Origin: Silanimonas sp.
Lineage (GTDB): Bacteria > Pseudomonadota > Gammaproteobacteria > Xanthomonadales > Xanthomonadaceae
Length of the DNA: 64,000 bases
NCBI GenBank assembly: GCA_027532825.1
Contig: JAPZTL010000027.1
Span: 3,674 to 67,673, forward strand
Reading direction: 5' to 3'
Both the position numbers and the translations under genes were made by a program. This document shows, one piece after another, positions 26,079-48,573 of this stretch. Numbering within the stretch: the first letter of the stretch is position 1; each line of letters begins with the position of its first letter. Under the pieces are notes generated by a model. The model had not been told where the DNA came from, ran no database searches, and saw only the letters and a list, made by a program, of their open reading frames with translations.

Positions 26079-26540
26079 TCAGGCGCCTTCGTACCCGCAC
26101 TGGCGCCACGCTTCGAACACGGCGACGGCCACGGCGTTCGAGAGGTTCAGGCTGCGCTGGCCCGGACGCATCGGCAGCGCGACGCGGGCGGAAGGATCGA
26201 AGCGCGCGAGCACCTGCGCCGGCAGCCCGGTGGTCTCGCGGCCGAACAGGAACGCGTCGCCGGGCCGGTAGGCCACGCGATCGAAGCGCGTCGCCTCGCC
26301 GGTCTCGACCACCCACCAGCGCGTGGGTCCGATCGCGGCGATGCAGGCCTCGAGATCATCGTGGACGGCCAGCGTCGCGTACTCGTGGTAGTCGAGTCCA
26401 GCGCGGCGCAACCGGGCATCGTCGACCTCGAAACCCAGCGGACGGACGAGATGCAGCGACGCGCCGGTGTTCGCGCACAGGCGGATCGCGTTGCCGGTGT
26501 TCGGCGGGATCTCGGGCTGGAAGAGGACGACGTGGAACAC
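26079..26540 (-). CDS. trmL: tRNA (cytidine(34)-2'-O)-methyltransferase
   Basis: HVVLFQPEIPPNTGN, LRRAGLDYH, FGRETTGLP, SLNLSNAVA (SPOUT fold). Confidence 0.96.
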   Translation of the reverse strand: MFHVVLFQPEIPPNTGNAIRLCANTGASLHLVRPLGFEVDDARLRRAGLDYHEYATLAVHDDLEACIAAIGPTRWWVVETGEATRFDRVAYRPGDAFLFGRETTGLPAQVLARFDPSARVALPMRPGQRSLNLSNAVAVAVFEAWRQCGYEGA

Positions 26541-37245: not shown

Positions 37246-39009
37246 ATGCATCCCCTCCGCCGACTCTTCGGCTACGCCCGCGCCTACCGCCGGGACGCCG
37301 CCCTCGGCACGGTCTACTCCGTGCTCAACAAGGTGTTCGACGTCCTGCCCGAGCTGCTGATCGGCGTGGCGGTGGACGTCGTCGTCAATCGCGAGGACAG
37401 TTTCCTCGCCGGCTTCGGCCTCGCCGACCCGATGCACCAGCTCGCGCTGCTCACGGCGCTGACGGTCGTCGTCTGGGTGCTCGAGTCCGCCTTCGAGTAC
37501 CTCTACGCGCTGAAGTGGCGGGGCCTCGCGCAGGACCTCCAGCACGAGCTCCGCCTCGCCGCGTACGGCCACCTGCAGCAGCAGCCGCCCGGCGCGATCC
37601 GCGAGGCGCGCGCCGGACGGCTGATGGCCGTGCTCAACGAGGACGTGAACCAGGTCGAACGCTTCCTCAACACCGGGGCCAACGACCTCATCCAGGTCGC
37701 GGTCGGCTCCTCGCTGGTGGGCGTCTTCTTCTTCGTGGTGACCGCCGACCTCGCGGCGCTGGCGCTGCTGCCGGTGCCGCTGATCCTCGTCGGCGCGTTC
37801 TGGTTCCAGAAGCGCCTGCAGCCCCGCTACGCCGCCGCACGCGAGGCGGCGGCGACGGTGTCCGCGCGCCTCGACAACAACCTCGACGGCATGGCCACGA
37901 TCCAGGCCTACACCGCCGAGGCCGCGGAGCTGGCCCACGTGCGCGACGCGTCCGACGCTTACCGCGCGGCCAACGCGGAGGCGATCCGTTTCTCGGCGGC
38001 CATCACGCCGGTGATCCGCATGGCGGTGCTGGCCGGCTTCGCCGCGACCCTGCTGTATGGCGGCCACCTCGTGCTGTCCGGCGACCTCGGCGTCGGCAGC
38101 TACTCCGCGCTGGTGTACCTGACCCAGCGCCTGCTGTGGCCGCTGACGCGGCTCGCGGAAATGACCGACCTCTACAACCGCTCGATGGCGTCGGTCACGC
38201 GGGTGATGGACCTGCTGGAGACCCCGCTGCCGCCGCGCGCGACCGGCGTCCTCGAGCACCGACCGCGCGGCGCGTTGGCCTTCGAGGGCCTGCGCCACGC
38301 GTACGAGGGCCGCGTCGTGCTCGACGGCATCGACCTCGCCGTCGCGCCGGGGCAGACGGTCGCGCTGGTCGGCGCCACCGGCGCGGGCAAGAGCACCCTG
38401 CTGAAGCGCCTGCTCGGCTTCCTGCCCGCGCAGGGCGGCCGGATCACGCTCGACGGCATCGATCTGGCCGGCATCGACCCGAGTGCGCTGCGCCGGCACG
38501 TGGCCTATGTCGCGCAGGACCCCTTCCTGACCGACGGCACGGTGGCCGAGAACATCGCCTATGGCGATGCGCGGCCGGACCGGATGCGGATCGAAGCGGC
38601 GGGCCGTGGCGCGGAAGCGCATGGCTTCATCACGGCCCTGCCCGGCGGCTACGACGCCCCGGTCGGCGAGCGCGGCGCGCGGCTCTCGGGCGGGCAGCGC
38701 CAACGCATCGCGCTGGCCCGTGCGCTGTACCGCGATCCGGCGCTGCTGCTGCTCGACGAGGCGACCTCGGCGGTGGACAACGAGACCGAAGCCGCGATCC
38801 AGCGCTCGCTGGCCACCCACGCCAAGGGCCGGACCACGCTGGTCGTGGCCCACCGGCTCAGCACCGTGCGCCACGCCGATGCCATCCACGTGCTCGATGC
38901 GGGCCGCATCGTAGAGTCGGGGACGCACGATGCCCTGCTCGCCCGCAACGGCGCCTACGCCGCCCTGTGGCGGCTCCAGACCGGAGAGTCCACGCCCGAT
39001 GCCCCATGA
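37246..39009 (+). CDS. ABC exporter, fused permease/ATPase (MsbA-like)
   Basis: TM domain, Walker [18 protein letters not shown] signature, LLLDEATS. Confidence 0.93.
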
Positions 39010-40708
39010 CGTCAGCCTGATCGCCATGCTGGCCGCCGCCTTCGGCGGCGCCCTCGTCCTCGGCTACCTCGCGCATCGCGTCGGGCTTCCGGCCATCGTC
39101 GGCTTCCTCGCGGCCGGGGTCCTGATCGGCCCGCACACGCCGGGCTACGTCGCGGACGCCAAGCTGGCCATGCAGCTCGCCGAGATCGGCGTGATGCTGC
39201 TGATGTTCGGCGTCGGCCTGCACTTCTCGCTCGACGACCTCAAGAGCGTCCGGCGCATCGCGCTGCCCGGCGCGCTGCTGCAGATCGGCGTCGCGGTCGC
39301 GATGGGCATGGGCCTCGCCGCATGGTGGGGCTGGTCGCCGGGTGCGGGCTTCGTGTTCGGCATGTGCCTCTCGGTGGCCTCGACCGTCGTGCTGCTCAAG
39401 GCGCTGGAGGCGCGCGGCCTGCTCGACGGTGGCGACGGCAAGATCGCCGTGGGTTGGCTGGTCGTCGAGGACCTCGTCATGGTCCTCGTGCTCGTGCTGC
39501 TGCCCGTGCTGGCGCCGCTGCTCGCCGCGGACGGCCCCGGCGACGGGATTCCCGAGGGCCTGTGGGCGACGCTGGGCACCACGCTGCTGAAGGTCGCCGC
39601 CTTCTTCGTGGTGATGCTGGTGGTCGGGCGCCGCCTGCTCCCCCGCTTGCTGTGGTGGGTCGCGCGCACCGGCAACCGCGAACTGTTCACGCTGGCGGTG
39701 ATGTCGGCGGCGATCGGCGTCGCCTTCGGCGCGGCGGCGCTCTTCAGCGTGTCGTTCGCGCTGGGCGCGTTCTTCGCCGGCATGATGATGCGCGAATCGG
39801 CCTTCAGCCACCGCGCGGCGGAAGAGTCCCTGCCCTTCCGCGACGCCTTCGCCGTGCTGTTCTTCGTTTCGGTCGGCATGCTCTTCGACCCGGCGGTGGT
39901 CGTCGAGGCCCCCGGCAAGCTGCTCGCGGTGGTCGGCGTGATCATCGTCGGCAAGACCATCGCGGCGATCCTGCTGGTGCGGCTGCTGCGCTACCCCTGG
40001 CGCACCGCGCTGACGGTGGGCGTGAGCCTCGCCCAGATCGGCGAGTTCAGCTTCATCCTCGCCGGCCTCGGCCTGGCGCTGGGGCTGGTCGACGCCACGG
40101 TGATGAGCCTCGTCGTCGCCGGCGCGGTGATCTCGATTGCCCTCAACGGCGCGCTGTTCTCGCTGGCGGAGCGGCTGAAGCCGCGCCTCGCGGCACGCGA
40201 CGGCGCCGCGACGGGCCCCGAGCAGGACCTCGCAGACCCGCTGGCGGTGCTGCCCGACGCGGTCCCGGCGCAGTCGCTGCGCGGGCACGTGGTCATCGTG
40301 GGGCATGGGCGGGTCGGGGCGCAGCTGGGCGACGAACTCGCCGCAGCGGGACGCGCCCACGTGGTGGTCGACAGTGACCGCGCGCGCGTCGAAGCCCTGC
40401 GGGGCAACGGCCGCGCGGCGGTCCTGGGCGACGCCACGCGACCGGAGGTGCTCGTGCAGGCGCACGTCCAGCACGCCGCGGCGCTGGTGGTCGCGACGCC
40501 GGATATGCTGGCCGCCCGGGCCATCGCGCAGACCGCCCGCCAGCTCCGCCCGGCGCTGCGAGTCTTGGTGCGCACCCACAGCGCGGAGGAGGCCGAACTG
40601 TTGGAACGCCAGCAGCTCGGGGAGGTGTTCTACGGCGAGCGGGAGCTCGCACTGGGCCTCGCCCGCCGGCTGCTCGAGGCGCCGGCCAACGACGCCGGCG
40701 GCGCCTGA
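38999..40708 (+). CDS. CPA2 cation:proton antiporter with TrkA-N domain (YbaL/KefB-like)
   Basis: LAEIGVMLLMFGVGLHFS, WLVVEDL, QIGEFSFIL, VIVGHGRVG. Confidence 0.92.
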   Translation: MPHDVSLIAMLAAAFGGALVLGYLAHRVGLPAIVGFLAAGVLIGPHTPGYVADAKLAMQLAEIGVMLLMFGVGLHFSLDDLKSVRRIALPGALLQIGVAVAMGMGLAAWWGWSPGAGFVFGMCLSVASTVVLLKALEARGLLDGGDGKIAVGWLVVEDLVMVLVLVLLPVLAPLLAADGPGDGIPEGLWATLGTTLLKVAAFFVVMLVVGRRLLPRLLWWVARTGNRELFTLAVMSAAIGVAFGAAALFSVSFALGAFFAGMMMRESAFSHRAAEESLPFRDAFAVLFFVSVGMLFDPAVVVEAPGKLLAVVGVIIVGKTIAAILLVRLLRYPWRTALTVGVSLAQIGEFSFILAGLGLALGLVDATVMSLVVAGAVISIALNGALFSLAERLKPRLAARDGAATGPEQDLADPLAVLPDAVPAQSLRGHVVIVGHGRVGAQLGDELAAAGRAHVVVDSDRARVEALRGNGRAAVLGDATRPEVLVQAHVQHAAALVVATPDMLAARAIAQTARQLRPALRVLVRTHSAEEAELLERQQLGEVFYGERELALGLARRLLEAPANDAGGA

Positions 40709-41226: not shown

Positions 41227-42111
41227 TCAGCCGGCCGGCTTGCGGAAGCGCAACGTCATGCGGTCCGACTCGCCGATGGCCTCGTACTTCGCCTTGTCAC
41301 CGCCCTCCGGCACGTCGAGGGTCGGTGGCAGGGTCCATACGCCGTTCGGGTGGTCCTTGGTGTCCTTCGGGTTGGCGTTGATCTCGCTCCTCGCCTCCAA
41401 CACGAAGCCCGCAGCCTCGGCCAGGGCGATGACCTGCGCCTCGCTGACATAGCCGTTGATCTGCTCGCGCGGCACGTCGGCGTTGGCGCGGTGCTGCTCG
41501 ACGCCAAGCACGCCACCCGGCTTCAGCACGTCGAAGAACGCCTTCATCTGACCCTCGGCCTGGCCGTTGCGCATCCAGCCGTGCAGGTTGCGGAAGGTCA
41601 GCACCGCGTCGGCCGAGCCCGGCTCGCCATAGACGGGGGCCGTGGGATCGACTTCGCGGAGCACGACCGCGTCGAACTGGGCGGGCGCCGCAGCGAGGCG
41701 CTCGCGCAGCTTGACGTTGTCGCCGGTGAAGTACTCGCGGGCGCGCTCCGAAGCGGCCTTGGCCGGGTCGTTGATCGCCGCGACGTAGGTGCCGCCGCCC
41801 TGCTTGATCCACGGGGCGAGGATCTCGGTCCACCAGGCGCCGCTGCCAGGGCTGATTTCCACCACCGTCATGCCCGGCTGCAGGCCAAAGAAGGACAGGG
41901 TCGGACCGGGGTGGCGGAAGCCATCCCGCGCGACGTTGGCGGGCGTGCGCCATTCGCCAGCGATCGCGGCATCGAGGGCGGCCTTGGCCTGCTCGTGCGC
42001 GTCGTGTGCGGCGGCGTCGGCCGGCTTGGCGTCGCCGCCGTGGTTGTGCGCGAAAGCGGCGGGAGCGGCGCAGGCGGCGGCAAGGGCAAGGGCGAAGAGG
42101 CGGTGGCGCAT
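41227..42111 (-). CDS. class I SAM-methyltransferase-like protein with signal peptide
   Basis: RDGFRHPGPTLSFFGLQPGMTVVEISPGSGAWWT, DAVLTFRNLHGW, GESDRMTLRF; N-terminal MRHRLFALALAAACAAPAAFA. Confidence 0.85.
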   Translation of the reverse strand: MRHRLFALALAAACAAPAAFAHNHGGDAKPADAAAHDAHEQAKAALDAAIAGEWRTPANVARDGFRHPGPTLSFFGLQPGMTVVEISPGSGAWWTEILAPWIKQGGGTYVAAINDPAKAASERAREYFTGDNVKLRERLAAAPAQFDAVVLREVDPTAPVYGEPGSADAVLTFRNLHGWMRNGQAEGQMKAFFDVLKPGGVLGVEQHRANADVPREQINGYVSEAQVIALAEAAGFVLEARSEINANPKDTKDHPNGVWTLPPTLDVPEGGDKAKYEAIGESDRMTLRFRKPAG

Positions 42112-42280: not shown

Positions 42281-42727
42281 GTGCCCGTGCCTCCCGACCG
42301 TCCTTCCGGACCCTTCCGCGCCCACGGCGACATCGAGGTGCTGAAGGACGGCTCGATCATCCGGGCCGCTGGCGCGGGCCCCTTCAATGTGGAAGCCGTC
42401 GCGGCCTACGCGCAGCAAGTGGCGCGACTGGTCGCCGGCGTCGAGCCCGGCGGGCGGTTCGTGGTGATCGCGCGGATGAGCCGCAGCATCCTCGCACCGC
42501 CCGAGGCGTGGGCCGCGCTGGAAGCGAGCATCGGCAGTCGAAAGCGCGGCCCGTCGCGCCAGGTCGGTGCCGCCTGGGTGAAGGAGGGCGAGGTCGAGGG
42601 CTGGGCCCTGATGCTGCCCAGGGTCAACGCGATCTACCGCGCCATCGACGTGCCCTTCCGCGGCTTCGACGACGAGGCCACGGCGACTGGATGGGCCCTG
42701 GACGTGCTCGGCGGCCGCGAGCCCTGA
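42281..42727 (+). CDS. hypothetical protein, STAS/SEC14 (SpoIIAA-like) fold suspected
   Basis: GC3-rich ORF; the C-terminal F.DE..A..W pattern resembles SpoIIAA-like small proteins; inference. Confidence 0.55.
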   Translation: MPVPPDRPSGPFRAHGDIEVLKDGSIIRAAGAGPFNVEAVAAYAQQVARLVAGVEPGGRFVVIARMSRSILAPPEAWAALEASIGSRKRGPSRQVGAAWVKEGEVEGWALMLPRVNAIYRAIDVPFRGFDDEATATGWALDVLGGREP

Positions 42728-42743
42728 GGCACCGCTCGATGCG

Positions 42744-43445
42744 TCAGTACGGTGGACGGGTGCGGCGGCCGACCGAGTAACAGGCGCAAGCCGCGTGCTC
42801 CAGACGATCCCGATCGAGGATCAGCAGCTCGCCGCGGGAGTAACGGATGATGCCGGCGCGATGCAATCGGCCTGCCGCAATCGTTACGGCGCTTCGCTGC
42901 ACACCCAACAGTCCCGCGAGGCGCAGGTGGGTGAAGCGGAGCTCCGACTCCCCGACCCGATCCTGCGCCCGCAGCAACCACAGTGCCAAGCGGGAAGGAA
43001 GCGAGTGGAAGCGGGTGCAGGGAACGGCCCGCGCGACCTGCGCGAAAAGCTGGGTCACCGCGCGGTCGACCAGCCGGCGAAGGATCGCGTTGGCGTCGAG
43101 CTCGGCGCGGAATCGAGGAACGCCGATCCGCCACGCACGACCGCCGACGAGGACGACGGAGCGCATCGCGGACGGTGCAACACCCAAGGCCAGCATCGCA
43201 CCGTCGACACTTTCGCGGCCGATCACGGCGACTTCGAGCGCCTCATGCCCACCCACCTCGGCAAGCACCCCGATGAGTCCGGCCTGCGGGAAGTGCACCT
43301 GCGCATGGCTCCGCCGGGCGAAGACCAGACGCTCGTCGACAACCAGTTCGACGTCGTCGCACTGCGCGAGGAACCGCTCGCCGAGGGCGCGAGGCAGTTG
43401 GCCCAGCAGGGCGTTGCCACGATTCGACGGTTTCAAGATGGCCAA
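42744..43445 (-). CDS. Crp/Fnr-family regulator (divergent copy)
   Basis: NALLGQLP, cNMP-binding-like domain (EVAVIGRE), RFHSLPSRLALWLL, HTH FTHLRLAGLLGVQRSAVT, ACACY; TTG start. Confidence 0.85.
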   Translation of the reverse strand: MAILKPSNRGNALLGQLPRALGERFLAQCDDVELVVDERLVFARRSHAQVHFPQAGLIGVLAEVGGHEALEVAVIGRESVDGAMLALGVAPSAMRSVVLVGGRAWRIGVPRFRAELDANAILRRLVDRAVTQLFAQVARAVPCTRFHSLPSRLALWLLRAQDRVGESELRFTHLRLAGLLGVQRSAVTIAAGRLHRAGIIRYSRGELLILDRDRLEHAACACYSVGRRTRPPY

Positions 43446-43757
43446 GCGCGTCTCCTCGAGGGCGTCGGCAGACGCGCTCTCTCAGTCGTCGCAGGCGCCA
43501 CGCAACGGCAGGGGAACCGGAACCACCCGCAGCAATGGATGGGCGAACTCGCCATCAGGGCTCATCGAATCGGCCCCAGGCTGCTCCACCGGCTCCGACG
43601 GACGCCACCGGGCGTCTTTCGATGGCAGCGGAGCGCTGGGGACGAGGAACAACGCTCCTCCCGATCGCCGGGACAAGGCACGTTCCGCACGGGAACGCGC
43701 TGGCGATGTCCATAGGTCGTCATTCGGCCTGTCCCGGCGTTCGTGGAGGACACGACG

Positions 43758-44129
43758 TCACACCTTGTGACGTGCGAGGAAGCGGGCCACCTGGCCGTCG
43801 GCCTCCGAGCGCTTGACGCCGTAGCGCTTCTCGACGAGCGACGCGAGATCGGCCGCCTGGCCGTTGGTCTTCAGCAGTTCGTCCGCGCTGATCTTGGTCC
43901 ATTCCGCGCGCGCTGCACCCACCTGGGTGCTCCAAGGACCGCGCCCGCCTTTCGACTTCGCGGTGATGTCGGACGGCTGGCCCATCAGGGCATCGTCGCC
44001 CTTGGCCGCAGTCGGGGCTGCGGCGGCGGCATGGGAGAGGGCCTCGCCATCGGGGAGATGGAAGGCCGGCGTGGGCTGCGGCATCGCGCCCTTGGCGGGG
44101 ATGTCATGCGTGTTCTTTGAGGTGGTCAT
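43758..44129 (-). CDS. CsbD/YjbJ-like general stress protein with N-terminal extension
   Basis: C-terminal half W.TQVGAARAEWTKISADELL...LVEKRYG...EAD.QV..F matches the CsbD pattern. Confidence 0.75.
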   Translation of the reverse strand: MTTSKNTHDIPAKGAMPQPTPAFHLPDGEALSHAAAAAPTAAKGDDALMGQPSDITAKSKGGRGPWSTQVGAARAEWTKISADELLKTNGQAADLASLVEKRYGVKRSEADGQVARFLARHKV

Positions 44130-44220
44130 GGGGGGGATCTCGATGGGGGTTCCCGTGCCGGGAGGCGGCGGGCCGGCATGGGCCGGACATCGAGACTGCG
44201 CTTCCCGTGGAAGAACATCG

Positions 44221-44234
44221 GTGCGCTACGCCAC
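44221..44234 (-). promoter_or_regulatory. Crp-like box upstream of the csbD-like gene
   Basis: GTGGC-GTAG-CGCAC on the minus strand, 22 nt before hexamer CAGTCT (44198-44193). Confidence 0.6.
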
Positions 44235-44260
44235 GCAGCAATGATCGACGACGCTCTCGC

Positions 44261-45001
44261 TTAGCGGGCGAACTTGGGCGGCGCGCTCGAAGGCACGTAG
44301 TGCAGCAAGCGGTCGTACTCGTGCTTGACGACGGCGTAGCACTCGCAGCAGCGCGCTTCGAGGCCCGGGCGATCGAGCACGGTGATGTGGCCACGGCTGT
44401 ACTCGATCAGCCCCTGCTTCTGCAGCTTGCCGGCCGCTTCGGTCACGCCTTCGCGGCGCACGCCCAGCATGTTGGCGATCAGCTCCTGCGTCATCTGCAG
44501 CACGGGGCCGTCGAGGCGGTCGATCGACAGCAGCAACCAACGGCAGAGCTGCTGATCGATGGAATGGTGGCGGTTGCACACCGCCGTCTGGGCCATCTGC
44601 GTGAGCAGGGCCTGCGTGTAGCGCAACAGCAACAGCAGCAGATCACCGTGGCGGTTGAACTCCTCCATCAGCACCGGGCCGGCGAGGCGATACGCCCAGC
44701 CCGCGCTCTGCACGACCGCACGGCTGGGCGTGCTCGCGCCGCCCATGAACAGCGCCACGCCGACGATGCCTTCGTTGCCGACCACCGAGATCTCCGCGGA
44801 GGCGCCGTCCTCCAGCACGTAAAGCAGGGAAACGATGCTGTCCGTGGGGAAATAGGCGTATCGCATCGCGTCGCCCGGCTCGTAGAGCACCTTCCCCAGC
44901 GGAAACGGCACGCGCTCGAGTTTCGGAAACAGGCGCTGCCGTACCTCACTAGGCAGGGCGTCGAGCAGGTGGTTCCGTTCGGGCGAGGGGGCGTTGGGCA
45001 T
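44261..45001 (-). CDS. Crp/Fnr-family transcriptional regulator
   Basis: NHLLDALP, YFPTDSIVSLL, EISVVGNEG, NRHHSIDQQLCRWLL, HTH MTQELIANMLGVRREGVTEAA, CECYAVVK. Confidence 0.95.
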   Translation of the reverse strand: MPNAPSPERNHLLDALPSEVRQRLFPKLERVPFPLGKVLYEPGDAMRYAYFPTDSIVSLLYVLEDGASAEISVVGNEGIVGVALFMGGASTPSRAVVQSAGWAYRLAGPVLMEEFNRHGDLLLLLLRYTQALLTQMAQTAVCNRHHSIDQQLCRWLLLSIDRLDGPVLQMTQELIANMLGVRREGVTEAAGKLQKQGLIEYSRGHITVLDRPGLEARCCECYAVVKHEYDRLLHYVPSSAPPKFAR

Positions 45002-45037
45002 GCCGTCCGAGCATACGCCGCCGCCTTCACGGCCTAT

Positions 45038-45051
45038 GTGTGGTAGCGAAC
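45038..45051 (-). promoter_or_regulatory. Crp-like box at the crp-family gene's own promoter
   Basis: GTTCG-CTAC-CACAC on the minus strand, 22 nt before hexamer TATGCT (45015-45010). Confidence 0.6.
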
Positions 45052-45061
45052 ACAGGCGTGT

Positions 45062-45075
45062 GTGTGGCGCCGCAC
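45062..45075 (+). promoter_or_regulatory. Crp-like box upstream of the entericidin operon
   Basis: GTGTG-GCGC-CGCAC; the hexamer 22 nt downstream (GATGCC) is a weaker -10 match. Confidence 0.5.
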
Positions 45076-45131
45076 CGACGCTACGGCGGATCCGACGGAT
45101 GCCGGCGTCCCCTCGACCCGCGGAGCGTGCC

Positions 45132-45332
45132 ATGAACCACCGAACCCCCCGACCCCGGAACGTCCTCCTGATCGGCATGGCCTTGATCGCCATGCTGGTG
45201 CTGGGCGCCTGCAACACGATGCGCGGCGTCGGCAAGGACACCGAAGCCGTCGGTGAAAAGATCCAGGACGAAGCCGAGCAGCACATGGATGACGATGAGA
45301 AAGACGACCGCCGCGAAGGAGCCCCCCTGTGA
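45132..45332 (+). CDS. entericidin A/B family lipoprotein
   Basis: LGACNTMRGVGKD...GEKIQ, followed by an acidic tail. Confidence 0.85.
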   Translation: MNHRTPRPRNVLLIGMALIAMLVLGACNTMRGVGKDTEAVGEKIQDEAEQHMDDDEKDDRREGAPL

Positions 45333-45787
45333 AAACGCCCCTGATCCCGATGATCGGCCTGGCGCTCGTGCTGACGGTCGGATGCCAGAAATCCCCATCA
45401 GACGCCGCCGACGACCTGGCCGCCGAGCGCGCCAAGGCCAGTGATGACATCGCCGAGGCCCGCGACGAAGCGGCGGTCTCCATGGAGGAGGCGGACGAGG
45501 CCCTCGTCGATGCGGAACAGACGCGCGACGAGGCCGTGGTCGACGCGCAGGACGACATGGGCTCTGCGACCGCGGACATCCTGGCCGAGAGGGCGGAAGC
45601 CAACTACACCCTCGCGACCAAGGAAGCGGACGCCCGCGCCCGGGTAGCCATGGAGAAGTGCGAAGCCCTCAGCGGCGTCGACCAGACGGCGTGCAAGAGC
45701 GAGGTCGACGCAACGCGTGCGGTGGAGGAGACACGAGCCATTGCCGACCGCGATGCCGCGCTGGCGGAGGCGAAACGCCAGGACTGA
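45329..45787 (+). CDS. acidic helical lipoprotein of unknown function
   Basis: GTG overlaps the ecn stop (GTGA); lipobox LTVGC; C-terminal EKCEALSG...ACK Cys pair. Confidence 0.75.
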   Translation: MKTPLIPMIGLALVLTVGCQKSPSDAADDLAAERAKASDDIAEARDEAAVSMEEADEALVDAEQTRDEAVVDAQDDMGSATADILAERAEANYTLATKEADARARVAMEKCEALSGVDQTACKSEVDATRAVEETRAIADRDAALAEAKRQD

Positions 45788-45891
45788 GGGAACGACCGGC
45801 GGCGGATGGCCACTGCCGGTGCCATCGGACGGGGCCCTTTGCCGGGCCCCGTCGTCGTTGGCGGTGCGGTCATGCCGTGCACGAGACCCTC

Positions 45892-46155
45892 TCAGCCGCC
45901 GATCCAGCGCCTCGCGATCAGGCCCAGCAGCGGAGCAAGACCGAGCTTCCGCGCCGGCGACCACATCCGGATCGCCAGCAGCAGGGCGAGCAGGCTCACG
46001 ATCGGATGGCGCCGGGCCAAGGCCAAGCCGTCCATGACGCGATCGGCCACGTGCAGCGGGCCCGAACACTGGACGCACTGCACGGCAAGTTGGATGCGCT
46101 GGGTCTGGGCCAGCGCCGCGAGCTCTCGCCGACGAACCGCCACGGCCGTCGTCAT
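45892..46155 (-). CDS. YqjK-like protein
   Basis: RRRELAALAQTQRIQLA N-terminus with hydrophobic C-terminus; third gene of the elaB-yqjE-yqjK-like trio, overlapping by 4 nt. Confidence 0.6.
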   Translation of the reverse strand: MTTAVAVRRRELAALAQTQRIQLAVQCVQCSGPLHVADRVMDGLALARRHPIVSLLALLLAIRMWSPARKLGLAPLLGLIARRWIGG

Positions 46156-46562
46156 GGCGGCGACGCGCGCAGGATGGCGTGGTCCTTGCCCAACTCCTCG
46201 AGCGTGGCGGCGAACCAACGCGGCGCGCGGCGAATGCGCTCCAAGGCCACGGCCACGGCGGCCGCCCCGAAGAGCAGCAGGACGAAAGCCGCGCCGACGA
46301 GCACGGCGACCCGGTCTTCGCTGGCGACGGCGAGCACGGCGGCGGCCAAGCCGGCCGCGACGGCCAAGCCGAACGCGAGCAATGCGGCGACCCACCACGA
46401 CAACACAACGATCAGGCGCCACAGGGCCTGGTCGAGGTCGACTTCCATCAAGGCGAGCCGCGTTTGTGCGATCGCCACCATCGTGGCCGCGAGGTCCGCC
46501 AGCGCGGCCATCAGGCCGCGCCGACGGGGGGGGGATGCGCCGCCCGCGGCCACCTCGCTCAC
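46152..46562 (-). CDS. YqjE-like (Actinobacterial holin-X/phage holin family) membrane protein
   Basis: QTRLALMEVDL, two TM segments, PRWFAATLEELGKD. Confidence 0.8.
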   Translation of the reverse strand: MSEVAAGGASPPRRRGLMAALADLAATMVAIAQTRLALMEVDLDQALWRLIVVLSWWVAALLAFGLAVAAGLAAAVLAVASEDRVAVLVGAAFVLLLFGAAAVAVALERIRRAPRWFAATLEELGKDHAILRASPP

Positions 46563-46918
46563 CGGCGCCGCAACAGGAAGCCCATCAGCAGGCCCACGCC
46601 GGCACCGATGCCGATGGCGGTCCAGGGATGCTGGTGCACGTAGCGGTCCGTGGCCGTGGCCGCGTCACGGGCCTGCGCGGCGACGGCCTGCTGGGCGTCG
46701 GCGATCCTCAGGTTCGCGGCGCGCAGCGAATCGCGCGTGCGGGCGCGGATGCCGTCGAGGGCTTCGCCGCCGTGCTGCGCGGTGGCCTTCAGCAGGGCTT
46801 CGGCGTCCGACATCGCGGTGCGGACATCGGCGATCAGCGGTTCCATCGACAGCGACGGTGCGCTGCGGTCGGGAACGATGCCACTGGACTTGTCGAGGGT
46901 CTTTTCGAGGGGATTCAT
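46559..46918 (-). CDS. ElaB/YqjD/DUF883-family membrane-anchored ribosome-binding protein
   Basis: DAEALLKAT...TDRYVHQHPWTAIGIGAGVGLLMGFLLRRR. Confidence 0.9.
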   Translation of the reverse strand: MNPLEKTLDKSSGIVPDRSAPSLSMEPLIADVRTAMSDAEALLKATAQHGGEALDGIRARTRDSLRAANLRIADAQQAVAAQARDAATATDRYVHQHPWTAIGIGAGVGLLMGFLLRRR

Positions 46919-46949
46919 GGGGACACTCCTGGGGGGAAGGAAACGAGGT

Positions 46950-47096
46950 TCATACCCGCTGGCCGCGCAGCAAGCGGATGACGATGATCACGACGGCGAC
47001 GACGAGCAGCAGGTGGATCAACCCACCCATCGTGTAAGCCGTGAAATAGCCCAGCGCCCAGAGAAGGACGAGCAGGACGGCAATGGTTTCGAGCAT
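46950..47096 (-). CDS. lmo0937-family small membrane protein (48 aa, not in the ORF track)
   Basis: Manual translation MLETIAVLLVLLWALGYFTAYTMGGLIHLLLVVAVVIIVIRLLRGQRV; GGAG upstream. Confidence 0.85.
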   Translation of the reverse strand: MLETIAVLLVLLWALGYFTAYTMGGLIHLLLVVAVVIIVIRLLRGQRV

Positions 47097-47170
47097 GGCG
47101 GCGGCTCCGGGTGGCGTGATCGATCGATCACGAGGAGGGCTGAGGATGCGCCGCGGGCTCGCGGATGACG

Positions 47171-47184
47171 GTGCGGTGCCGCAC
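47171..47184 (-). promoter_or_regulatory. Crp-like box upstream of the lmo0937-elaB operon
   Basis: Perfect GTGCG-GCAC-CGCAC, 22 nt before hexamer CATCCT (47148-47143). Confidence 0.65.
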
Positions 47185-47188
47185 GCAG

Positions 47189-47220
47189 CAAAAGAAACGG
47201 GGCGCTTGGAGCGCCCCGTT
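47189..47220 (-). terminator. Rho-independent terminator of icd
   Basis: 11-bp stem AACGGGGCGCT/AGCGCCCCGTT followed by UCUUUU on the minus strand, about 27 nt after the icd stop. Confidence 0.85.
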
Positions 47221-47247
47221 CCGGTGTCGCGATGTCGGCGTTTCCGA

Positions 47248-48573
<1,326 letters not shown>

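Follow-up and report, generated by a model that had tools for sequence, protein, structure and literature searches.

The window analysed here is a stretch of 64,000 nucleotides from contig JAPZTL010000027.1 of Silanimonas sp., a freshwater bacterium that has a genome of 3.09 Mb with a GC content of 69.7%. Between a conserved gene for a protein of 294 amino acids (41227–42111) and the gene icd (47248–48573), the window contains a cluster of about 5 kb with ten open reading frames (ORFs) located on both strands. The cluster includes two genes of the Crp/Fnr family of regulators, crp1 and crp2, a csbD-like gene, the entericidin gene ecn followed by a lipoprotein gene, and an operon headed by a gene of the lmo0937 family. 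Palindromic sequences, referred to below as boxes, precede crp2, ecn, lmo0937, and the csbD-like gene, and may be the operators of Crp2.

Gene families were assigned by profile searches with Pfam and NCBIfam. On the plus strand, ecn (45132–45332) encodes a small lipoprotein of 66 amino acids, which belongs to the entericidin family (PF08085, 32.2 bits; cut-off 23.3) and has a visible lipobox LGAC. It scores below the EcnA and EcnB equivalog cut-offs of NCBIfam and is a single gene here, with no toxin/antidote pair. The ecn stop codon overlaps the start of the gene for an Ala/Glu-rich lipoprotein of 152 amino acids (45329–45787, plus strand; visible lipobox LTVGC), which appears to be co-transcribed with ecn. 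This lipoprotein has a weak NCBIfam match to the Lpp/OprI alanine zipper (E 1e-3), and its homologues are found near crp2 in genome G026 and at loci L056, L070, and L109. The first gene of the minus-strand operon (46950–47096) encodes a membrane protein of 48 amino acids that belongs to the lmo0937 family, also called DUF5670 (NF033488, 60.8 bits, cut-off 30; PF18919, 58.3 bits, cut-off 23.5). It is followed by the gene for an ElaB/YqjD-like C-tail-anchored protein (46559–46918), which has both the N-terminal domain of DUF883 (PF05957, 29.2 bits, cut-off 25.4) and its C-terminal glycine-zipper membrane anchor (PF19029, DUF883_C, 56.7 bits, cut-off 27), and matches the ElaB model NF007709 with an E value of 8e-15. 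The remaining genes of the operon encode a yqjE-like membrane protein (46152–46562; Phage_holin_3_6, PF07332, 41.2 bits) and a yqjK-like product (45892–46155; PF13997, 28.2 bits, cut-off 28.1). To the right, the cluster is bordered by the intrinsic terminator of icd (47194–47222, minus strand), which consists of a 13-pair stem followed by a T-run. The csbD-like gene (43758–44129, minus strand) encodes 123 amino acids, and only residues 64–121 in its C-terminal half weakly resemble YjbJ (NF007748, E 1.7e-4); it does not reach the threshold of the CsbD/YjbJ family and is missed by a PF05532 search of the whole genome. Its homologues, 31–47% identical, occur near crp2 orthologues in nine distant loci. 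A sequence-only reading of the window had named the two crp genes, the entericidin and lipoprotein genes, the lmo0937-elaB-yqjE-yqjK series, and the icd terminator as a boundary, all of which were borne out. Of its CsbD-like gene, the weak C-terminal similarity to YjbJ stands, but the PF05532 score of 14.6 bits is far below the cut-off of 40.

Crp2 (246 amino acids, 44261–45001, minus strand) is a member of the CRP/FNR superfamily with matches to cNMP_binding (PF00027, 32.3 bits; cut-off 27.5) and HTH_Crp_2 (62.5 bits). Its AlphaFold2 model (pLDDT 92.5) has the CRP fold, formed by an N-terminal beta-barrel (strands 29–107), a long dimerization helix (120–145), and a C-terminal winged helix-turn-helix (172–195), and, in addition, two C-terminal helices on either side of Cys219 and Cys221. 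The Crp2 family is present in more than 515 loci; the orthologue-based counts of conservation, upstream motifs, and paralogues given below refer to the best 80 of them, which are 71–95% identical to Crp2. Proteins of Pseudomonas, Nevskia, Marinobacter, Aeromonas, Nitrosomonas, Chromobacterium, and Acidobacteriota bins are 71–79% identical. The recognition helix LGVRREGVTE and the residues Cys142, His146, Cys219, and Cys221 are invariant among the orthologues. The 8000 proteins that match Crp2 with E ≤ 1e-40 are all named merely as Crp/Fnr family. A literature search found nothing specific on this subfamily or on a Crp link to these stress genes, which is not proof of absence, and the subfamily is apparently undescribed. 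In a phylogenetic tree of Crp2, a single supported clade comprises the Silanimonas sequences, and those of Lysobacterales as a whole are scattered. Transfer could explain the scatter but is not proven by it; most deep branches of the tree lack support.

Sequence and fold searches of the PDB with Crp2 returned only generic CRP/FNR relatives of 16–22% identity. The Foldseek TM scores to CRP, GlxR, MtbCRP, FNR, and NtcA are 0.60–0.79, with those to MtbCRP and GlxR at 0.72–0.79. Crp2 keeps the recognition-helix Arg-Glu pair of E. coli CRP. In contrast, Arg185 of CRP is replaced by Glu, the cAMP-contacting Glu72 aligns with Val82 of Crp2 (hhalign, probability 85%), and an insertion of two residues in the phosphate-binding loop shifts the arginine of Arg82-Ser83. 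Nor does Crp2 have the N-terminal cysteine cluster of FNR: the oxygen-sensor ligands of the [4Fe-4S] cluster (Cys20, Cys23, Cys29, and Cys122) are missing, and the conserved cysteines of Crp2 are at positions 142, 153, 219, and 221, with none in the first 140 residues. It is also not an orthologue of Clp (3iwz), the c-di-GMP-responsive CRP of xanthomonads with sites of the TGTGA-N6-TCACA type, which ranks 32nd by fold with 16% identity and gives no sequence match to Crp2 at E 1e-3. In the AlphaFold2 model, Cys142 and His146 are positioned at the end of the dimerization helix beside the hinge. Together with Cys219-x-Cys221 in the C-terminal extension, they suggest a metal, Fe-S, or thiol switch. 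The iron–sulfur cluster ligands of Bacillus subtilis Fnr are C-terminal, and IscR has a set of three cysteines and one histidine. Crp2, with three conserved cysteines, two of them C-terminal, and one histidine, may be compared to these proteins by analogy only; the spacing of the residues differs.

Palindromic hexamer pairs were counted in the 350 nt upstream of the 80 crp2 orthologues. The search, which was given no prior motif, found half-sites TGT[G/T/A]CG separated by a 4-nt spacer (TGTnCG-N4-CGnACA) in up to 35 of the 80 upstream regions. There are 57 exact sites, compared to 2.1 ± 1.8 in dinucleotide shuffles, and when one mismatch is allowed, 41 sites are located at most 300 nt upstream of a crp2 orthologue and 14 before the downstream paralogue. 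A position-weight matrix (PWM) extends the motif to cTaTGTnCGnTAnCGnACAtAg. The 16-bp palindrome has GTG...CAC at the spacing of the CRP site (TGTGA-N6-TCACA). In the window, box A (TGTGTGGTAGCGAACA, 45037–45052) lies between crp2 and ecn and reads TGTGCGGTATCGAACA in the congeneric genomes G003, G004, and G006. With a PWM score of 25.6, it outscores every other site in the 3.09-Mb genome, the next of which has 15.1, and it is kept in the more distant congener G011 amid otherwise divergent intergenic DNA. Box B (TGTGTGGCGCCGCACC, 45061–45076, PWM 10.3) faces ecn and is conserved in all five Silanimonas loci. The conservation of box C (GGTGCGGTGCCGCACG, 47170–47185, PWM 10.1), upstream of the lmo0937 operon, extends to G003 and G004; in G011, which lacks icd, its sequence is TGTGCGGCATCACAC. 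All three boxes thus survive in G011 despite the diverged spacer around them. A weak box (GGTGCGCTACGCCACG, 44220–44235, PWM 5.1) precedes the csbD-like gene.

Three other candidate sites were dropped. The perfect 16-nt palindrome GTGATCGATCGATCAC (47116–47131) would be part of the 5′ leader of the lmo0937 operon and is not conserved in G003, G004, G006, or G011; it is probably not an operator. The 8-3-8 inverted repeat ACGTCACAcctTGTGACGT (43753–43771), which overlaps the stop codon of the csbD-like gene and is not followed by a T-run, is not conserved in G003, G004, or G006. A candidate box inside the 3′ end of crp1 (42760–42773) has a PWM score of −4.1.

At each of the four boxes of the window, the side facing the gene has a hexamer that begins exactly 29.5 nt away from the centre of the box: TATGCT for crp2 (45010–45015, minus strand), GATGCC for ecn, CATCCT for lmo0937 (47143–47148, minus strand), and CAGTCT for the csbD-like gene (starting at 44198, minus strand). 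The A2 and T6 of a −10 element are present in three of the four. The distance places the box at −41.5, which is class II geometry, with predicted transcription starts at 45003 for crp2, about 45110 for ecn, about 47136 for lmo0937, and about 44186 for the csbD-like gene. G003, G004, and G006 share the crp2 hexamer, for which G011 has TAAGCT; the ecn candidate reads AATGCT in G003, G004, and G006, and the sequence gaggatgcgc at the lmo0937 −10 position is conserved in G003 and G004. In distant genomes, an A2/T6 hexamer at the 29.5-nt offset towards the gene was found for 29 of 76 boxes, compared to nine facing away from the gene and 1–14 at neighbouring offsets. No sigma-70 consensus promoter was found in the cluster region, which fits dependence on an activator. 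The hexamer register also implies that crp2 is leaderless, as TATGCT ends 8 nt before the ATG. In G011 and most other genomes, the box is located 74–122 nt from the crp2 start codon.

In distant loci, the box precedes crp2 and genes of the lmo0937, canonical CsbD, DUF3309, DUF3096-like, BON, and YeaQ types, as well as lipid-modifying genes and, in Pseudomonas, the gene for cyclic-glucan synthase. Proteins 60–80% identical to Crp2 are encoded in 21 plasmid records. The best match (WP_009875850.1, 77.7% identity) is encoded by the conjugative Pseudomonas aeruginosa element pKLC102 between a chvB-like gene and the gene for a MobH relaxase; chvB has been reported on pKLC102 (PMC3731849). Boxes in pKLC102 precede a gene for 87 amino acids that leads towards crp2, a gene for 164 amino acids, a fusion of fatty-acid hydroxylase and cyclopropane-fatty-acid synthase, and a desaturase gene. 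The cargo end beside mobH (locus L143, 86782–101495; boxes 13–21, four transcription units) looks like one Crp2 regulon. On a Burkholderia multivorans plasmid, a Crp2 copy is surrounded by DUF3309, Spy/CpxP, PRC-barrel, and YSC84 genes, several of which are boxed. Co-occurrence was determined in 41 related genomes. All seven genomes with genes of the lmo0937 family are Crp2-positive, and such genes are present in none of the 29 genomes without Crp2 (p 3.5e-5, or 0.007 after the Silanimonas clade is collapsed), and DUF883 genes accompany Crp2 in seven of eight cases. Canonical CsbD is not correlated with Crp2.

The full module is present in five of 13 Silanimonas genomes, in a slot between the conserved gene and icd. 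The arrangement and flanks in G003, G004, and G006 are exactly the same as in the genome studied here. In G011, the order is patatin-lmo0937-elaB-yqjE-lipoprotein-ecn-crp2-crp1, without icd and without the csbD-like gene. The incomplete assembly G005 contains only a divergent pair of regulators on a 4-kb contig (crp2 match 73%), and crp2 is absent from seven congeners. Among the checks that the sequence-only reading had called for, the comparison of sister genomes confirmed that the module is accessory. The sliding analysis of GC content and codon usage revealed no atypical signature. As had been noted by eye, the GC content of the cluster (0.67–0.70) is lower than that of its flanks (0.71–0.76), but the average of 0.694 is ordinary for the genome, at the 27th percentile of its 4.9-kb windows (mean 0.697), and that of icd is lower still. 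The codon scores of the cluster genes are at the 24th–69th percentile, except for crp1 at the 8th. Composition was therefore rejected as evidence of a foreign origin. The statement that integrase and tRNA genes are missing also held: no integrase was found among the flanking genes, and the only tRNA gene of the window is at 26225–26319. No direct repeats flank the cluster. Of the features of a classical genomic island, the module thus shows variable presence at a conserved site in close relatives, and lacks an integrase or transposase, tRNA or repeat borders, and atypical composition.

In comparison with G003, the synonymous divergence (dS) of crp1, crp2, and lmo0937 is 0.43–0.59, close to the 0.51–0.67 of the flanks, and every cluster gene is under purifying selection, with a dN/dS of 0.06 for the csbD-like gene. 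The module is thus accessory, yet has been vertically inherited since the ancestor of one Silanimonas subclade, and nothing indicates that it was transferred recently. For icd and elaB, dS is low, which fits high expression. Recent recombination of the mt333–icd segment from a G003-like donor, an idea that arose because icd is 99% identical to that of G003 while patatin is closer to that of G007, was not supported; nucleotide identity of 89–92% is also found at 32–36 kb.

The first ORF of the cluster (42281–42727, plus strand) encodes 148 amino acids without a Pfam or NCBIfam match and has no upstream box. Its paralogues adjoin the conserved left-flank gene in G002 and G008, neither of which has the cluster, and it is duplicated in G004. 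Because paralogues occupy the same site in congeners lacking the cluster, the ORF belongs to the backbone of the variable slot and lies outside the stress module. The slot is a hotspot for cargo in Silanimonas. In four of the congeners without crp2 (G002, G010, G007, and G008; loci L129, L130, L127, and L128), it contains the D-lactate dehydrogenase gene ldhA alone, with the lactate permease gene lctP, or with a further large gene, or the gene for an unrelated secreted protein of 353 amino acids. The genes around the cluster encode an ABC transporter, a Kef-type antiporter, a PPC-domain protein, icd, patatin, and an S9 peptidase. The antiporter gene (38996–40708; Na_H_Exchanger and TrkA_N) is located between the ABC transporter and PPC-domain genes in this genome only. 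Its orthologues in G003 and G004 are 75% identical and about 25 kb away on the same contig, which indicates a local rearrangement.

The explanation that we favour, with a probability of roughly 0.6, is that a regulatory module with Crp2 at its core is widespread and has spread horizontally, and that the cluster is a copy of it that has long resided on the chromosome. A Crp2 dimer would bind the TGTnCG-N4-CGnACA palindrome centred at −41.5 and activate four weak promoters that have no −35 element. Box A would belong to the leaderless promoter of crp2 itself, from which transcription may continue into the csbD-like gene and crp1. Box B would serve ecn and the lipoprotein gene, box C the lmo0937-elaB-yqjE-yqjK operon, and the weak box the csbD-like gene. 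Positive autoregulation would make the module a switch. The cargo consists of small inner-membrane and envelope proteins, the families of which belong to the sigma-S or sigma-B stress regulons of other bacteria.

Several observations weigh against this explanation. Boxes B and C score only about 10 with the cross-genome matrix, a value reached by 46 sites in the genome, and the box of the csbD-like gene scores just 5.1. A genome-wide regulon was not found, as there is no second strong site and the boxes are not enriched in intergenic DNA (31 of 130, compared to 22% intergenic sequence). The gene set used for the intergenic test came from a rough home-made caller, which predicted 2036 genes and missed short ones; either the regulon is local here, or the gene set hides further members. 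The link between box and regulator is drawn from co-localization and conservation, and the Cys/His site of Crp2 from conservation alone. A site at −41.5 could equally serve repression, and the protein that binds the boxes could be Crp1 or a further member of the Crp family encoded in the genome. Finally, the metatranscriptome depths mentioned below were taken from assembled contigs, and for two runs it was only guessed that they are RNA.

It is unlikely, in our assessment, that the boxes are bound by Crp1, a Crp1/Crp2 heterodimer, or another Crp protein such as a Clp homologue, with Crp2 merely being regulated. Crp1 (233 amino acids, 42744–43445, minus strand) matches HTH_Crp_2 with 46 bits and has no cNMP_binding match; it aligns over its full length to the paralogue family at 32–45% identity. 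It is 32% identical to Crp2 and shares with it Cys142, His146, Cys219, Cys221, and Tyr222, which are common to the Crp2 and crp1-type families. A paralogue of the crp1 type is positioned directly 3′ of crp2 in about 25 of the 80 loci and is likewise preceded by the box. The paralogue keeps the equivalent of CRP Arg180, with Ser replacing Glu181, and the outer and central positions of boxes B and C are not the same as in box A. However, most loci with a strong box have no nearby paralogue, and the recognition helix of Crp2 and the core of the box are both invariant. In the recognition helix of Silanimonas Crp1 (GVQRSAVTI), Gln replaces the first Arg, and the protein, which has a C-terminal CACY, is fast-evolving. 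Its tree branch is 7.7, and its identity to the G003 protein is 87%, compared to 95% for Crp2. The dN/dS of crp1 relative to G003 is 0.15, which indicates purifying selection. Its GC3 of 0.79 is at the 5th percentile and its codon score at the 8th. That the cluster has two dedicated regulators, as the sequence-only reading had put it, is half shown: the boxes agree with the conserved Crp2 family, and crp1 is a possible second regulator.

The same reading had described a portable stationary-phase or desiccation island in which a dedicated Crp regulator substitutes for the RpoS (sigma-S) missing from xanthomonads. We regard this as improbable, although several observations agree with it. The genome has no RpoS above the curated cut-off, as the best match (291 bits, compared to 378.7) is RpoD, in line with the report that Xanthomonas oryzae lacks RpoS (PMC13382473). 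The module is accessory and has its own operator, and ElaB is controlled by RpoS and OxyR in E. coli (PMC6389858). However, bona fide RpoS is encoded in six of eight other Crp2-bearing genomes tested, those of Pseudomonas, Aeromonas, Marinobacter, Aquipseudomonas, Rheinheimera, and Chromobacterium, which have the same boxes and target families. Therefore, the Crp2 family is not a stand-in for sigma-S and at most provides sigma-S-independent control wherever it is present. In addition, most RpoS-less relatives in the family do not have the module, and the composition and dS of the cluster do not indicate an island. The replacement of sigma-factor control is thus not supported, and stationary phase or desiccation is at most a conjectured trigger. 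The dedicated Crp regulator gained support from conserved boxes at class II distance before the operons and from the near confinement of lmo0937 and DUF883 genes to Crp2 genomes. Portability is visible in the family, in its plasmids and pKLC102 and in the accessory slot, but not in mobility genes, repeats, composition, or dS of the Silanimonas copy. A portable module with its own Crp regulator is thus well supported by sequence comparison at the level of the family, and in this genome by the conserved operators rather than by composition. A separate ORF for 709 amino acids (locus L002, 1426–3555; genome G000, contig C29, about 13.7–15.8 kb) has N-terminal ankyrin-like repeats and a complete sigma-70 region 2–4. 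It scores 211 bits with the RpoS model and is not RpoS. It adjoins the gene for a HATPase/MORC-like protein of 476 amino acids and resembles a component of an accessory or defence-type island.

The expression data are assembled contigs of lake metatranscriptomes from a strain that is about 92% identical. One contig covers 43734–44095 in the csbD-like gene, another (46528–47034) joins the start of yqjE with elaB and lmo0937 at an assembler depth far above that of icd, and crp2 fragments are present at low depth. The csbD-like gene and the genes of the lmo0937 operon are thus transcribed, and the operon is real; the contigs are uninformative about regulation. We give little credence to the idea that Crp2 is a repressor whose box over the −35 position keeps the stress genes off until a signal arrives. 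The site at −41.5 overlaps the contact region of RNA polymerase, autoregulated repressors are common, and the lack of a sigma-70 consensus promoter in the region fits either model. However, the exact −41.5 register, which forms a peak at one offset among 76 independent sites, combined with a missing −35 element, is a hallmark of class II CRP/FNR activation, and the elaB operon is strongly represented in the lake RNA contigs while crp2 is also transcribed. It is hardly credible that the genes are an ordinary, unrelated neighbourhood with chance or structural palindromes: over the whole window, the loose pattern GTNYG-N4-CRNAC shows no enrichment (five found, 6.7 expected), but three of the five matches are located within 280 nt of cluster promoter DNA, the motif was independently rediscovered in 78 other loci, its register with the −10 hexamer holds, and the genes co-occur phyletically.

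As the centre of a regulatory module, Crp2 resembles the class II systems of E. coli CRP and FNR in its fold and in the position of its site; its regulon, in contrast to that of CRP, appears local rather than global. SdrP of Thermus thermophilus and DdrI of Deinococcus radiodurans (PMC11253593) are CRP-family proteins that activate stress or stationary-phase genes without cAMP in hosts without RpoS; mentions of SdrP are found in PMC12040651. No specific sequence relation of either protein to Crp2 was found, and neither was among the PDB sequence matches of Crp2. Their regulons are chromosome-wide, and unlike Crp2 they have neither the Cys/His signature nor a link to plasmids. The cargo families DUF883, YqjE, YqjK, and entericidin are those of yqjCDEK, elaB, and ecnAB in the sigma-S regulon of E. 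coli, which also includes yjbJ, and the E. coli order yqjD-yqjE-yqjK is kept in Silanimonas. ElaB of E. coli depends on RpoS and OxyR (PMC6389858), and YqjD associates with ribosomes in stationary phase (PMC8778775). Unlike in E. coli, the genes of Silanimonas are grouped in a single cluster that has a Crp-type operator, the genome lacks RpoS, the operon is headed by an lmo0937-family gene, and the similarity to YjbJ/CsbD is sub-threshold. The element pKLC102 has a Crp2 orthologue and the same boxes before its cargo units, but it is conjugative (MobH relaxase, MPF_G), and its cargo is for cyclic-glucan synthesis and lipid remodelling instead of elaB and ecn; the Silanimonas copy has no mobility genes. 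As a curious parallel, lmo0937 of Listeria monocytogenes has been reported to be regulated by PrfA, which is a Crp/Fnr-family protein, and to be sensitive to a sigma-B inhibitor (PMC3225968).

The most interesting product of the analysis is the regulator family itself, with its clear operator, a readable regulon of envelope and small membrane proteins, a conserved Cys/His signature, and carriage on plasmids and pKLC102. It is possible, although we consider it doubtful, that Crp2 controls an unrecognized mobile, sigma-S-independent envelope-stress regulon of Gamma- and Betaproteobacteria, including pKLC102 and Burkholderia plasmids, and senses redox state, metal, or oxygen through Cys142, His146, Cys219, and Cys221, which would bridge the hinge and the C-terminal extension; the box would then make the regulon readable in thousands of genomes. 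Genes of the ElaB/YqjD, lmo0937, CsbD, DUF3309, and entericidin families are among the commonest genes without a known function and are usually explained only as targets of sigma-S or sigma-B. Here, such small stress genes appear tied to a very conserved Crp-type regulator with a clear operator, carried on plasmids and conjugative islands. If the link is true, it would provide a testable regulator for small stress-protein genes, make the Crp2 regulon predictable from sequence in many bacteria, and offer a candidate reason for the presence of cyclic-glucan and lipid-remodelling genes on islands like pKLC102. For xanthomonad relatives without RpoS, it would be one concrete route to the control of stress genes, and not a general replacement of RpoS.

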